Assembly: GCA_963794325.1 (NCBI GenBank)
Contig: CAWCDG010000002.1
Location: 616,143-680,142, forward strand
Source of the DNA: an uncultured delta proteobacterium
GTDB lineage: Bacteria > Desulfobacterota > Binatia > Binatales > Binataceae
Direction: 5' to 3'
Length of the DNA: 64,000 nucleotides
Below, one piece after another: positions 8,660-53,232 of this stretch. Below the pieces are notes generated by a model. The model ran no database searches and was not told the DNA's origin. It saw only the letters and a list, made by a program, of their open reading frames with translations. The position numbers and the translations under genes were made by a program. Every line of letters starts with the position of its first letter. Positions within the stretch are counted from its first letter, which is position 1.

Positions 8660-9670
8660 CTAAGCTCCTGCCAAGGCGCGCATCGTGTTTGGATAGTCCC
8701 GCGCCGACGTTGCGGCCGGGCCGATTGGGAAGACTACCGGATGCGTTACGCCGGCGGCGCGGAACCTTGCAACGAAATCGCGGCCGGCTTGGGCTTTACC
8801 GAATACCGCGATTTTGCGGCACGATGCTTCCGAGATGGCTTTGGGAGCCTCGTCGCGCTTGCCTTCTTTCCACAGACGGCGCACTTCGTCGAACTCGGCG
8901 GCGAGACCGTAACGCGCGAACATCTTGTTGTAGCTGTCCACGAACGCGTAGCTGGCGAGCTCGCGGCGGAACGAATCTACCGCTTTGTCCTCATCTTCGG
9001 TGATGCACATGCGGATGTAGATGCCGACGTCGACGGCCGACGGATCGCGGCCCGCGGCTTTTGCGCCTTCAGCGATGTGCTGCACCATCGGCGCCATCGC
9101 TTCCGGTGGCGAGTAGTTCATCAGGACACCGTCGGCAACTTCTCCGGCGAGACGGAGCATCGGGGCGTTCAGGCCCGCGAGATAAATCTTCGGCGGATGC
9201 GGCGCCGTGATGCGCATGCTCAACTTGAAGTCGGACTTGTACACTTCGCCCTGGAACTTCGAACGGCCCTCGGTGAACAACTGGCGCATGATGGTGACGC
9301 ACTCGCGCATCGCGGTGACCGGCTTGCGATACGCCGCGCCGTGCCATCGCTCGACGATGATCGGACTCGACACGCCGAGCCCCGCGATCGCGCGGCCGCC
9401 GGACAGTTCGTTGATCGTGAGGAAGCCCATCGCCATCGCGCCCGGCGTGCGAATCTGAATCGGGATGACACCGGTGGCAAGTTCAGCCTTGCGAGTATTG
9501 ACCGCGAGCGCGGCGAGGCTGACGAACGCGTCGGGTCCGCTGACTTCGGCGATCCACAATGAGGTGTAACCGAGGTCCTCGGCCTCGCGGATGAGCGCGA
9601 GGCGAGCGGGGAGAGCGTCGGCACCGACGCCGACATTAGTCTGAAGTCCGAGCTTTTGGGTTGATGGCAT
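8660..9670 (-). CDS. Luciferase-like monooxygenase (LLM) family oxidoreductase, probably F420-dependent
   Basis: AEDLGYTSLWIAE, LATGVIPIQIRTP, LSGGRAIAGLG.S, IYLAGL..MLRLAGEVADG. Confidence 0.85.
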   Translation of the reverse strand: MPSTQKLGLQTNVGVGADALPARLALIREAEDLGYTSLWIAEVSGPDAFVSLAALAVNTRKAELATGVIPIQIRTPGAMAMGFLTINELSGGRAIAGLGVSSPIIVERWHGAAYRKPVTAMRECVTIMRQLFTEGRSKFQGEVYKSDFKLSMRITAPHPPKIYLAGLNAPMLRLAGEVADGVLMNYSPPEAMAPMVQHIAEGAKAAGRDPSAVDVGIYIRMCITEDEDKAVDSFRRELASYAFVDSYNKMFARYGLAAEFDEVRRLWKEGKRDEAPKAISEASCRKIAVFGKAQAGRDFVARFRAAGVTHPVVFPIGPAATSARDYPNTMRALAGA

Positions 9671-49811: not shown

Positions 49812-50318
49812 ATGCGGTGCCCCTTCTGCCGCCATCGGGGAAATCGCGTCATCGATTCGAGGCTCGCGAACGACGGCATGTTGATTCGGCGTCGTCGCGC
49901 GTGCTCGGGATGCAAGCGGCGCTTCACGACCTACGAACGAGTCGAAGAGGCGGCGCCGATGGTGGTCAAGAAAGACGGACGCCGGGAGCCGTTCGATCGC
50001 GCCAAGATAGTCGCGGGCTTGAAGCGCGCGTGCGAGAAGCGGCCGGTCTCGATGGAAACGATCGAGCAACTGGCCAACAACATCGAGACTGCGATGACCG
50101 AACAGAGCGATCGCGAGGTGGCGAGCAGCGTGGTCGGCGCGGCGGTGATGAACGAGCTGCACAAAATCGACCAGGTCGCGTACGTGCGCTTCGCGTCGGT
50201 CTATCGCCAATTCAAGGATATCGACGAGTTCATGCACGAGCTCGAAGACCTCATCAATCAACGCAAGCAAGCTCCCGCGCATCGCGCCGGTGAAAAGAAA
50301 GGCAACGGCGCCGCCTGA
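49812..50318 (+). CDS. nrdR: Transcriptional repressor NrdR
   Basis: MRCPFC, IRRRR.C..C..RFTTYE, ATP cone, [10 protein letters not shown]. Confidence 0.97.
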
Positions 50319-51429
50319 TTCGGCTGCGATTCGGGACGAGCGCTTCATGCGCGACGCGCTCGCGCTCGCACAAGAACAGCTCGGGCTGACCACTCCAAAT
50401 CCGTCCGTAGGATGCGTGATCGTGCGCGGCGAAAAAGTCGTCGGGCGCGGCGTCACCGGCGTGGGCGGGCGTCCGCACGGCGAGACGGTGGCAATCGCGG
50501 AGGCGGGCGCGCTCGCGCGCGGCGCGACCGCGTACGTATCGTTCGAGCCATGCGCACATTTCGGGCAGACGCCGCCGTGCGCGAACGCGCTGGTCGCGGT
50601 GGGCGTCAAGCGCGTCGTCGTGGGATGCGTCGATCCGGACCCGCGCGTCAGCGGTCGAGGAATCGCAATCCTGAAGCGCGCGAAGACAGTCGTCACGGCC
50701 GGAGTGCTCGAAGAAGAGTCTTTGCGGCTCAATGAAGGGTTCATTACGCGGCTGCGACAGGGACGCCCGATGAACACCCTCAAGCTTGCGATGTCGATGG
50801 ACGGGCGAATCGCCGCGAGCAGCGGCGATTCGCGATGGATCAGTTCGCGCGAATCGCGCGAACTGGTCCATCGATGGCGTCGCGAATGCGACGCCATCAT
50901 GGTCGGTGCGGGCACGGTGATCGCCGACAATCCACGACTGACGTGCAGAATCGCGGGCGGACGCGATCCGGCGCGCGTCGTCGTCGACGCGCGCCTGCGC
51001 TCCTCGCCGAGCGCACTCGTATATCGTCAGCGCTCGAAGGCCCCAACTATCTTGGTCACGACGCCTGCGAATCTCGCTCGCGCGCGAGCGAGATATGAGC
51101 GTCGCGGTGTCGAGGTGATCTCGGTCGCGACTCATAGCGGAATCATCGAGCTGGATCGCTTGATGCTCGAGTTTGGGCATCGCGGATGGTGCCGTGTTTT
51201 AATCGAAGGCGGTGCAAATCTCGCCGGCTCCGCACTCAGTGCCGGAATCGTCGATCGGGTGGCATTCTTCGTCGCGCCCAAACTCCTTGGTGCGGGCCTC
51301 TCCGCGATCGAGGGAATGAAATCGCGCAGCGTGCGCGATTCCGTCCAACTTGAGGATCTTTCGGCGCGTCAAGTCGGCGACGACTGGCTGTTCGAGGGTC
51401 GGGTGCGCCGGACAGGAAGAAAATGTTAA
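50290..51429 (+). CDS. ribD: Diaminohydroxyphosphoribosylaminopyrimidine deaminase/reductase
   Basis: [37 protein letters not shown]; start uncertain. Confidence 0.95.
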
Positions 51430-51509
51430 CTCAATCTTCAACCCAAGAGCTGATTCACTGAATAGACTGGTTAGGTTCTCCAGCCGGTGATAATATCGCC
51501 ATCATTGAA

Positions 51510-52730
51510 TTGAATCAGATGAAACCGGCCTCTCTAGAAGAAATTTTCTCCACGCTGCGCGACGGAAAGATGGTCGTGATGGTCGCGGAGGAGCGCGAGG
51601 ACGCCGAGGGCGACCTCGTGATGGCGGCCGAGAAGATCACCCCAGTCGATATCAATTTCATGGCGCGCGAGGCCTGCGGCGTCATTTCGGTCGCGATTCC
51701 CGAGAAGCGTTTCCGCGCACTTGGCATTCCGCTCCAGCCTTCGACCGACAACGGCGATTCCAACGAACAGGCCGGCGTGCTGATCGACGCTCGCGAGGGC
51801 GCCACCACCGGCATCTCGGCGAGCGATCGTGCACGCGTGATTTCGGTAGTCGCATTCGACGAGTCGCGTCACGACGATATCGTTATGCCGGGACACATCC
51901 TGCCCTTGATGGCGCTGAGCGGCGGCGTGATGGTGCGAATAGGGCGCGCCGAGGGCGCGGTCGACCTGGTTCGCTCTGCGGGAATGGGTTCGGTCGCGGC
52001 GTTGTGCACGATACTGCGCGAGGACGGCGAAGCCGCGCGGCTCAAGGAACTTCGAGAATTCGCGACGAAGCATTCGATCCCAATCGTTTACGTCAAGGAA
52101 CTCGTCTCGCATCGCCTGACGAATGAAGTCCTGGTCCAGCGGGTTTCCGAGCAGCCGTTCCCGATCGAGGGCGGCATGCTGAATGCAGTCGTCTTCCGCA
52201 ACGTCGTTGACGGCCGCGAGCATCTCGCGCTTATCAAGGGTCAGGTCGGCGGTGGACGCTCGGCGCTGGTGCGGCTCCATTCGGAATGTCTCACTGGCGA
52301 CGTGTTTGCGTCCGCGCGATGCGATTGCGGCGAGCAGTTGCAGGAGGCGCTCGATCGAATCATGGCGGCGGAGCGCGGCGTGGTGATTTATCTCCATCAG
52401 GAGGGCCGCGGTATCGGGCTCGGCAACAAGATTCGCGCGTACGCGCTCCAGGACAATGGGATGGACACGGTCGAAGCGAATTTGCATCTCGGCTTCGAGG
52501 AGGACCTGCGCGATTACGGAATCGGCGCGCAGATTTTGCGCGACCTCGGCGTCGGCGAGGTGCAGTTGCTCACCAACAATCCGCACAAAATTGACAGCCT
52601 GCGCCGTTACGGGGTGAATGTCTCTCGCGTGCCGATCGAAGTCGTGCCGCACGCCGGAAATATCGGGTACTTGAAAACCAAAAAGGAAAAACTCGGCCAT
52701 CTTTTTTCGGAGCTGAAACTGATCACATGA
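51510..52730 (+). CDS. ribA: RibBA fusion with intact GTP cyclohydrolase II and degenerate DHBP synthase domain
   Basis: C-terminal [33 protein letters not shown] intact; N-terminal RibB motifs altered. Confidence 0.92.
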
Positions 52731-52785
52731 AAAAGTAAGCCGCTGCGCCGGCGCAGCGCGCGTTGCCAGCGACTGTGGAATTGCA

Positions 52786-53232
52786 ATGGGATTAAGACAT
52801 CAGGGGCGCGAGCTTGCGCTCAAAGCCCTATACCGGATTGATATCTGCGGCGGCGCGAGCAGCGACGACCTGACCGCGCTGTTCGAAAGTTTTCCGGTCG
52901 AGGATGACGCGCGCAAGTTTGCCGTCCAGCTGATGGAAGGGGTGAGGCGCGAGCAGCCGGCGCTCGACAAGCATCTGGCGGACGCGCTGGAACACTGGTC
53001 GGTCAAGCGGCTGTCGCGCGTCGATCACAACGTCATGCGAATCGCGCTTTACGAATTGCTGCGGATGGAGGACATTCCAACGCGCGTTACGATCGACGAG
53101 GCAATCGAGCTGGCGAAGTGTTACGGCGACATCGAATCGGGACGCTTCGTCAATGGGGTGCTGGACGAAATTGCGGGACGGCTGGGGCTCAAGCAGAAGG
53201 GTGAGGATGTCACGTTATCCAAGGCCGAGTAG
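52786..53232 (+). CDS. nusB: Transcription antitermination factor NusB
   Basis: RELALKALY, W...RL..VD, IDEAIELAK.YG...S..FVNGVLD. Confidence 0.95.
   Translation: MGLRHQGRELALKALYRIDICGGASSDDLTALFESFPVEDDARKFAVQLMEGVRREQPALDKHLADALEHWSVKRLSRVDHNVMRIALYELLRMEDIPTRVTIDEAIELAKCYGDIESGRFVNGVLDEIAGRLGLKQKGEDVTLSKAE

Follow-up and report, generated by a model that had tools for sequence, protein, structure and literature searches.

Complementary degeneration of two RibBA paralogs in the class Binatia and a possible composite DHBP-synthase site

We analysed a 64,000-nucleotide stretch of DNA (the window, G000:C2:616143-680142) from genome G000, a 4.45-Mb assembly of Candidatus Binatus in 10 contigs that is 85% complete, and describe here a ribBA-like gene within its rib operon, which we name RibXA. 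The encoded protein combines an N-terminal domain resembling DHBP synthase (DHBP, 3,4-dihydroxy-2-butanone 4-phosphate), the RibB activity, with a GTP cyclohydrolase II domain, the RibA activity, and the same genome encodes a second RibBA paralog of the RibBX type. As far as the sequences tell, RibXA has lost the residues that a DHBP-synthase monomer contributes to its own active site (cis) and has kept those that it contributes to the site of its partner (trans), and RibBX shows the reverse. What is new here is that the "dead" RibXA domain keeps both partner-reaching loops in 51 of 52 orthologs. We infer that RibXA and RibBX bind each other and, as a heterodimer, share one composite DHBP-synthase site, a reading to which we assign a probability of roughly 0.6.

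In such a heterodimer the two proteins would pair up through their N-domains. RibBX would give the cis half of the site, namely acidic loop 1, Cys68, Thr94, Gln154-Thr155-Glu156 and Glu175, and RibXA would give the trans half, consisting of loop 4' (Thr107-Thr108) and loop 5' (His137), with the second potential site dead on both sides. The presence of the two activities on two genes would make separate dosage possible. A wider hypothesis holds that the DHBP synthase of Binatia is an obligate heterodimer which originated after an ancient duplication, one copy having lost the cis half and the other the trans half together with the cyclohydrolase, that this arose at least twice (in Binatia and in a family termed f12), and that it is tied to the uracil demand of the deazaflavin FO (7,8-didemethyl-8-hydroxy-5-deazariboflavin) and coenzyme F420; taken as a whole, we would put even odds on it.

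Complementary retention of cis and trans residues

DHBP-synthase active sites are placed at the subunit interface in a passage of PMC10366380. In the enzyme of V. cholerae the site is built from loops 1 (34-41), 2 (82-98) and 3 (175-185) of the own monomer, to which the other monomer adds a lining of loop 4 (103'-111') and loop 5 (132'-138'), as described in parts of PMC5228156, where Thr108 is called strictly conserved, a Thr-to-Ser mutant is given as inactive in M. jannaschii, and Glu39Ala and His154Ala are given as inactive in V. cholerae. Residues are numbered here as in V. cholerae, the V. cholerae number being the window residue + 8. We compared 138 ordinary RibBA, of which 36 belong to other phyla and 102 are single-copy proteins of this phylum, with 52 RibXA and 40 RibBX. 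The 100 fetched single-copy RibBA genes were placed in frame by tblastn, and three rows were left out of the counts, two because of frame disruptions (L033, L050) and one as a fragment covering residues 190-406 only (L053). The residues were kept as follows.

Arg38 (cis): ordinary 138/138, RibBX 40/40, RibXA 0/52
Glu39 (cis): ordinary 138/138, RibBX 40/40, RibXA 3/52
Cys68 (cis): ordinary 138/138, RibBX 40/40, RibXA 10/52
Thr94 (cis): ordinary 138/138, RibBX 40/40, RibXA 0/52
Thr155 (cis): ordinary 137/138, RibBX 40/40, RibXA 0/52
Glu175 (cis): ordinary 138/138, RibBX 40/40, RibXA 0/52
Thr108 (trans, loop 4'): ordinary 137/138, RibBX 2/40, RibXA 51/52
His137 (trans, loop 5'): ordinary 138/138, RibBX 15/40, RibXA 52/52
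Gly109 (trans, loop 4'): ordinary 138/138, RibBX 40/40, RibXA 52/52
Ser111 (trans, loop 4'): ordinary 138/138, RibBX 37/40, RibXA 52/52
Asp114 (trans): ordinary 129 Asp and 9 Glu of 138, RibBX 38/40, RibXA 51/52

The two sets thus display the complementary cis/trans retention that would be expected of an obligate enzyme/pseudoenzyme heterodimer with a composite active site. Asp131 of loop 5' is likewise kept in 50 of the 52 RibXA. All ordinary RibBA have His or Gln at residue 154, and all RibBX have Gln; the RibXA have Arg here in 41/52 and His or Gln in 1/52. Position 108 of the RibBX is occupied by Ser (30), Lys (3), Arg (2), Gly (2) and Leu (1), with Thr left in two, and position 137 by Tyr (24), His (15) and Cys (1). 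According to an earlier count over invariant columns, RibXA had lost 10 of 19 cis columns and RibBX none of the 19, and of the trans-loop columns RibXA had lost 1 of 10 and RibBX 4 of 10. Fisher tests on this earlier count (p = 0.04 and p = 0.009) were given no weight, as the columns are few and the sequences related.

The RibXA protein and its RibBX counterpart

The features of RibXA in the window are listed below.

51510..52730, + strand: ribBA-like gene named RibXA, 406 aa, DHBP-synthase-like N-domain fused to GTP cyclohydrolase II
51531..52124, + strand: DHBP-synthase-like N-domain, residues 8-205; fold kept, cis catalytic residues lost
51585..51614, + strand: remnant of acidic loop 1, residues 26-35, with Arg38 to Glu, Glu39 to Asp and Asn40 to Ala (consensus DDEDRENEGD)
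51792..51827, + strand: loop 4', residues 95-106, fully canonical; lids the active site of the partner in DHBP-synthase dimers (passage in PMC5228156)
51876..51902, + strand: loop 5', residues 123-131, DIVMPGHIL, carrying His137; lines the active site of the partner (passage in PMC5228156)
51945..52010, + strand: stretch of lost cis residues, His/Gln154 to Arg (residue 146), Thr155 to Ala (147) and Glu175 to Thr (167)
52125..52727, + strand: GTP cyclohydrolase II domain, residues 206-406, intact; zinc-ligand motif at 52272-52340

RibXA scored above the cut-off on the GTP cyclohydrolase II model TIGR00505 (242.8 bits, cut-off 205.85) and reached 225.5 bits on PF00925. On the DHBP synthase model TIGR00506 it gained 155.5 bits, below the equivalog-domain cut-off of 177.45, and at the level of fold and family it belongs to PF00926 (DHBP_synthase) with 192.3 bits over residues 10-200 (cut-off 26.4). 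All six models for bifunctional RibBA were failed, the best being NF006803 with 469.1 bits (cut-off 569). The best match in the PDB is M. tuberculosis RibA2 (4i14; E 1.2e-97, residues 8-399).

Motifs were read from residue alignments to PDB 4i14 and to 36 ordinary RibBA from many phyla. A conserved Cys is changed to Ser in RibXA, G-[HQ]-T-E reads G-R-A-E and C-E reads C-T, and the cis site is lacking, as Asp, Arg, Ala and Thr stand at the positions of Glu39, His/Gln154, Thr155 and Glu175. The first-pass annotation of this DNA had reported altered RibB motifs beside intact zinc and catalytic motifs in the RibA half; every change that it named was found in the alignments, and the three zinc cysteines and QEGRG are present in both of them. 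From these residues, the RibB half of the window gene is very probably without a DHBP-synthase site of its own. The three cysteines of the GTP cyclohydrolase II half, which we take to be zinc ligands, and the arginine of QEGRG are present in RibXA and in 52/52 orthologs. Text on zinc binding by the cyclohydrolase domain in parts of PMC10012899 and PMC3509567 backs the cysteines as zinc ligands.

The second paralog (G000:C4:520514-521683, in locus L004:1447-2619) encodes 390 aa and is 38% identical to RibXA. It passes the ribB model TIGR00506 (227.5 bits, cut-off 177.45), fails the ribA model with 75.3 bits, has canonical DHBP-synthase motifs and has its three zinc cysteines replaced. By sequence it is therefore a RibBX, defined as a live RibB with a RibA-like domain that lacks the zinc and ring-opening residues; the window gene is the reverse of this definition. 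The G000 genome contains exactly two DHBP_synthase and two GTP_cyclohydro2 domains, which are reciprocally degenerate, and the C-terminal domain of RibXA is its only intact GTP cyclohydrolase II. A binning artefact does not account for the pair, because both copies share one contig in some relatives (G004, G023, G150).

Age and spread of the pair

In 40 of the 41 Binataceae genomes, which represent 30 genera, RibXA and RibBX were found together; only RibBX was seen in G019 (94% complete), and in G031 the copies are fragmented. One of these 41 genomes, G017, is unpublished and also supplies one RibBX row (L112). In a second sample of 401 phylum genomes, each at least 85% complete, two RibBA matches were present in 15/15 genomes of the class Binatia, covering 9 families, and most other genomes have one. 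A homolog search with the RibBX N-domain gave at least 120 orthologs, all close Binataceae among the matches listed. The RibXA rows and the RibBX rows form one branch each, with a support of 99 in the Shimodaira-Hasegawa-like approximate likelihood ratio test (quick method, unrooted trees). The reciprocally degenerate RibBA pair is old and fixed throughout the class Binatia. It may have originated by duplication or by acquisition.

Selection and a model of the complex

For 11 ortholog pairs the ratio of nonsynonymous to synonymous substitution rates (dN/dS) lies between 0.055 and 0.24 in the RibXA N-domain and between 0.03 and 0.13 in the cyclohydrolase domain. From these values we conclude that selection preserves the N-domain and that it is not in decay.

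A model of the complex was computed from RibBX residues 10-216 and RibXA residues 1-207. It scored 0.93, the best control 0.02, and this pass is to be taken as a likeness to DHBP-synthase homodimers and not as proof that RibXA and RibBX bind, because such homodimers have been solved. The mark of 0.93 is attained by 58 of 80 solved complexes and by 2 of 110 mismatched pairs. The runs agreed in at least 97% of contacts, with a predicted local distance difference test (pLDDT) of at least 89 for the partner. In the model RibXA residues 99-105 and 125-129, which are those of loops 4' and 5', are in contact with RibBX residues 40, 42, 65-67 and 176-184.

Control lineage and younger pairs

Genome G322 (family f71) is the earliest branch in both clades (support 97 and 96) and can serve as a control. 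Its RibBX keeps Thr107-Thr108 and His137, and in its RibXA loop 4' is no longer preserved, with TT changed to GS and Asp114 to Ser, and the cyclohydrolase is intact. Since the G322 RibXA does without loop 4', this loop is required neither by the fold of RibXA itself nor by its cyclohydrolase. In the remaining 10 same-genome pairs (G000, G116, G150, G078, G394, G270, G182, G417, G440, G371) RibXA has Thr108 throughout and RibBX is without it in 9, the RibBX of G417 keeping Thr108.

Family f12 (G048, G161 and G127, all of one genus) carries a separate, younger RibBA pair whose copies are 61% identical. Copy a passes the bifunctional cut-off (606.9 vs 569) and has a canonical cis site and cyclohydrolase together with Thr108Lys and His137Gln. 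In copy b the changes are Arg38Pro, Glu39Asp and Glu175Thr; its cyclohydrolase scores 150.3 bits (cut-off 205.85), its loops 4' and 5' are canonical and its dN/dS is 0.085. Judged by its residues, the f12 pair shows the same cis/trans logic as the pair of Binatia. A further pair was found in the single genome G076 (family f40), where copy a with Thr107Ala and Thr108Ser stands beside a copy b with a canonical DHBP-synthase domain; in its sequences this pair appears compatible with the heterodimer model.

Evidence against the heterodimer and rival explanations

Several observations speak against a heterodimer. The contrast of G322 to the rest is a single split in the tree, and the concordant genomes are therefore not independent. 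The columns were sorted into cis or trans from the literature after the pattern had been seen. RibBX homodimers could work in some lineages, given that His137 stays in 15/40 RibBX and that the RibBX of G417 keeps Thr108. One of the 100 single-copy RibBA (L146, G159:C5:27652-28851) has Ser108 and is otherwise canonical, and because no other DHBP-synthase domain was found in G159 (98% complete, 1.5 Mb), Ser108 alone may be tolerated. In G345 the first copy (L266) is fully canonical and the second (L267, G345:C36:7050-8360) has Thr155Val, Glu175Gly and a degenerate cyclohydrolase with intact trans loops, from which it follows that retention of these loops is not in every case a sign that they are required. 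Two canonical copies each are carried by G363, G164 and G339. Finally, the RibXA and RibBX genes are not in one operon, and without a flavin mononucleotide (FMN) riboswitch nothing indicates their co-regulation. No such riboswitch was found in the window, at the RibBX, RibH, RibE and cofH loci or in the whole genome (85% complete), so there is no sign of differential control by a riboswitch.

The main rival to the heterodimer is a division of labour without interaction, in which RibXA would be a homodimeric cyclohydrolase with an inert N-terminal scaffold and RibBX a homodimeric DHBP synthase that tolerates Ser, Gly, Arg or Lys at position 108 and Tyr at position 137. RibBX beside a separate RibA is an established arrangement according to PMC10012899, in a passage citing Brutinel 2013, and Arabidopsis RIBA3 and RIBA2 each alone complement the matching E. 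coli mutant, as given in a part of PMC3509567. The unlinked genes, the Ser108 of the single-copy enzyme L146 and the RibBX of G322, which is self-sufficient by sequence, also favour this explanation. It fails, however, to explain why Thr108 (51/52) and His137 (52/52) are kept in a dead domain while the cis residues drift freely, or why the RibBX have given up residues found in 137/138 and 138/138 of the ordinary enzymes. Loop 4' is moreover dispensable both for RibXA itself, as in G322, and for the fold, as in RibBX, and the proteobacterial RibBX of PDB 6mnz keeps TTG and PGH. Weighing these points, we consider a mere division of labour rather unlikely, though it is the alternative to be taken most seriously.

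It would be considerably more surprising if the N-domain of RibXA had a non-catalytic role of its own that is unrelated to RibBX, for example as a sensor of ribulose 5-phosphate or DHBP that tunes the cyclohydrolase. The purifying selection on the domain would agree with such a role, as would the retention of Arg151, Asp43 and Glu156 and the Arg at position 154 in 41/52 RibXA, which could still hold a phosphate. Yet the most conserved blocks are the two partner-facing loops and not the substrate pocket, the pocket-lining loops 1-3 vary widely between RibXA orthologs, and the matching losses in RibBX are left unexplained.

If the heterodimer is real, it would be a natural bacterial example, within core vitamin metabolism, of how complementary degeneration can lock in complexity (constructive neutral evolution). 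The retention of "dead" RibBA-like halves would then be accounted for as well, which may bear on RibBX and on plant RIBA2 and RIBA3. The pair is a clean candidate, readable from sequence, for an enzyme that depends on its own paralog, and comes with a control (G322) and a younger replicate (f12).

Organisation of the rib operon

The neighbours of RibXA in the window are as follows.

49812..50318, + strand: nrdR, transcriptional regulator at the head of the cluster; TIGR00244 210.2 bits (cut-off 124.65), Pfam Zn_ribbon_NrdR and ATP-cone
50290..51429, + strand: ribD, bifunctional pyrimidine deaminase/reductase; TIGR00326 340.5 bits (cut-off 156.35), Pfam dCMP_cyt_deam_1 and RibD_C
52786..53232, + strand: nusB, the usual 3' neighbour of rib operons; TIGR01951 129.4 bits (cut-off 88.35)

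The operon nrdR-ribD-ribBA-nusB, as it had been described in the first-pass annotation, was confirmed by the open reading frame calls and by NCBIfam and Pfam. Gaps of only 80 bp between ribD and ribBA (51430-51509) and 55 bp between ribBA and nusB (52731-52785) leave no space for ribE or ribH within the operon. From its called GTG start, ribD shares 29 nt (50290-50318) with the end of nrdR, and the real ribD start may be more downstream.

Among the Binataceae loci the full order nrdR-ribD-ribXA-nusB is present in 32/42, and a RibE or RibH match in 0/42. The altered states of the RibB half were found again in 41/41 Binataceae orthologs read. Because the same states recur in all 41 orthologs and the operon without ribE and ribH recurs in relatives, the altered motifs are not due to chance or assembly error. 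In a locus of another Binatia family (L052) ribH is kept ahead of nusB, and in 23 of 36 outgroup loci ribE lies immediately upstream of ribBA; from the synteny of these three groups of loci it follows that RibXA occupies the ancestral operon position. Local frame disruptions were noted in two RibXA orthologs from Binatus (L033:3001-4221 and L050:3001-4219), the match in L050, at 1219 nt, not being divisible by three. Both disruptions probably stem from indel errors in assemblies of long reads.

The remaining riboflavin pathway

The genes missing from the operon were found elsewhere in G000, on contig C4. Lumazine synthase (RibH) is encoded at G000:C4:581881-582279 (TIGR00114 105.9 bits, cut-off 84.6) and riboflavin synthase (RibE) at G000:C4:959148-959690 (TIGR00187 217.1 bits, cut-off 156.6). 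With these two genes and the RibB-competent RibBX the riboflavin pathway is complete. The first-pass annotation had read the operon as a loss of the riboflavin-specific steps, and had named intact ribB, ribE and ribH elsewhere in the genome as what would refute this. Its statement that ribE and ribH are absent holds for the operon and not for the genome, where both lie on C4 above the cut-off, and the profile check for RibH, RibE and a second RibB found all three, so that the proposed auxotrophy is refuted by the annotation's own standard.

It is very improbable that the bacterium is a riboflavin auxotroph with nothing but the upper pathway left, for FO and F420: the operon without ribE and ribH, the degenerate RibB half and the presence of F420 genes would suit it, but RibH, RibE and a RibB-competent paralog in G000 pass curated cut-offs. 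In Binatia, a degenerate RibB half in a rib operon that lacks ribE and ribH is thus not a sign of auxotrophy, since the missing steps are encoded elsewhere. Automated reconstruction that calls either paralog "bifunctional RibBA", or broken, would mis-score the pathway.

The lumazine synthase gene (L001:1486-1899, - strand) lies directly downstream of hisF and hisH, outside any rib operon. Divergent from ribE we noted a gene for a HAD-IA phosphatase (L002:386-1087, - strand) with a weak match to the YigB model (35.8 bits, cut-off 225). By sequence this is a candidate for the missing 5-amino-6-(5-phospho-D-ribitylamino)uracil phosphatase of the pathway. Genome G046 (84% complete) was not used as evidence. 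Its sole RibBA-like gene (L132, G046:C82:4400-5750) is degenerate in both domains and has an internal TAA; the gene is probably a pseudogene, and this lineage may be a real riboflavin auxotroph.

F420 genes and their link to the split RibBA

The ribD-ribBA operon is, as had been proposed, a module for 5-amino-6-ribitylaminouracil, which is required by riboflavin and FO alike. In the suggested mechanism nrdR-ribD-ribXA would supply this uracil to both riboflavin and FO/F420. The expected FO-synthase and F420 genes were indeed present: a cluster on contig 3 carries cofH (453.1 bits, cut-off 374.1) with a cofG-like neighbour, cofE (279.8 bits, cut-off 180.65) and a cofD that is split over three frames. 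This cofD lies between cofE and cofH (L135:1100-2010, G000:C3:165549-166459) in three pieces with 176.9, 75.4 and 25.9 bits, each below the cut-off of 257.45, and represents either two assembly frameshift errors or a broken gene. The probable F420-dependent gene at 8660-9670 (- strand) of the window was upheld as a luciferase-like monooxygenase (LLM); on TIGR03841, the model for F420-dependent LLM, it reaches 209.5 bits, slightly below the cut-off of 213.65.

In a profile search of 121 sampled phylum genomes cofH scored above the cut-off in 7, strongly (453-502 bits) in G000, G078, G116, G150 and G076 and marginally in G067 (377.7) and G069 (375.8). Two long RibBA paralogs were present in 6/121 genomes, namely the five with a strong cofH and G048. 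Scores at the level of a true cofH were confined within this sample to Binatia and G076. The co-occurrence of cofH with a RibBA pair goes back to about two independent lineages; in family f12, to which G048 belongs, no cofH was seen (genomes 61-79% complete). There is some support for a link between FO/F420 and the split RibBA. The joint occurrence with FO synthase hints at a metabolic reason for uncoupling the GTP branch from the ribulose-5-phosphate branch. In most genomes of the 121-genome sample we also noted two adjacent genes with 224-374 bits on the cofH model, below the cut-off; our guess is that these are radical-SAM homologs of the menaquinone (futalosine) pathway.

Comparison with known systems

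RibBX is described in a passage of PMC10012899, citing Brutinel 2013 (J Bacteriol 195:5479), as a RibBA-derived fusion whose RibA-like half is without catalytic residues and is nevertheless kept. The C4 paralog of G000 fits the type as it is portrayed there, passing the ribB and failing the ribA model with its zinc cysteines lost, and RibXA is its mirror image with a dead RibB and a live RibA. In Proteobacteria with RibBX the missing activity comes, following the same passage, from a stand-alone RibA, whereas in Binatia it comes from a mirror-image fusion. Also in contrast to the proteobacterial RibBX of PDB 6mnz, which keeps both residues, the RibBX of Binatia have lost Thr108 and mostly His137.

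The closest analogue of the Binatia pair is that of RIBA3 and RIBA2 in Arabidopsis. According to the relevant text of PMC3509567, RIBA3 acts only as GTP cyclohydrolase II and RIBA2 only as DHBP synthase, as found by assay and by E. coli complementation, and a possible structural role for the dead RIBA halves was raised there (Hiltunen et al. 2012). As portrayed in that text, the plant proteins are, like the pair of Binatia, bipartite proteins with one activity lost in each; plants, however, also keep a bifunctional RIBA1, whereas Binatia are without any bifunctional copy, and the origins are independent. Neither cis/trans complementarity nor a heterodimer is proposed for the plant RIBA proteins in these parts of PMC3509567. 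Our literature search yielded no description of a bacterial fusion of dead RibB and live RibA or of a RibBA heterodimer, and nothing pertinent on riboflavin in Binatota; the accessible portion of a recent riboflavin review (PMC13151069, 2026) makes no mention of such RibBA variants.

Canonical bifunctional RibBA, such as M. tuberculosis RibA2 (4i14), have the same two-domain layout and length as RibXA and the same neighbourhood with ribD and nusB. RibXA differs from them in falling below the bifunctional and the ribB cut-offs and in having lost the cis residues. In the 'prozymes' of S-adenosylmethionine decarboxylase (AdoMetDC) and deoxyhypusine synthase from trypanosomatids, a dead paralog is indispensable, as the active site lies at the subunit interface; these systems are eukaryotic and unrelated in fold to RibBA. 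By analogy, the Binatia proteins would be partners of this kind, with the differences that each bears an additional independent domain and that their interaction is a predicted one. RibBX is a known type, paired across Binatia with its mirror image.

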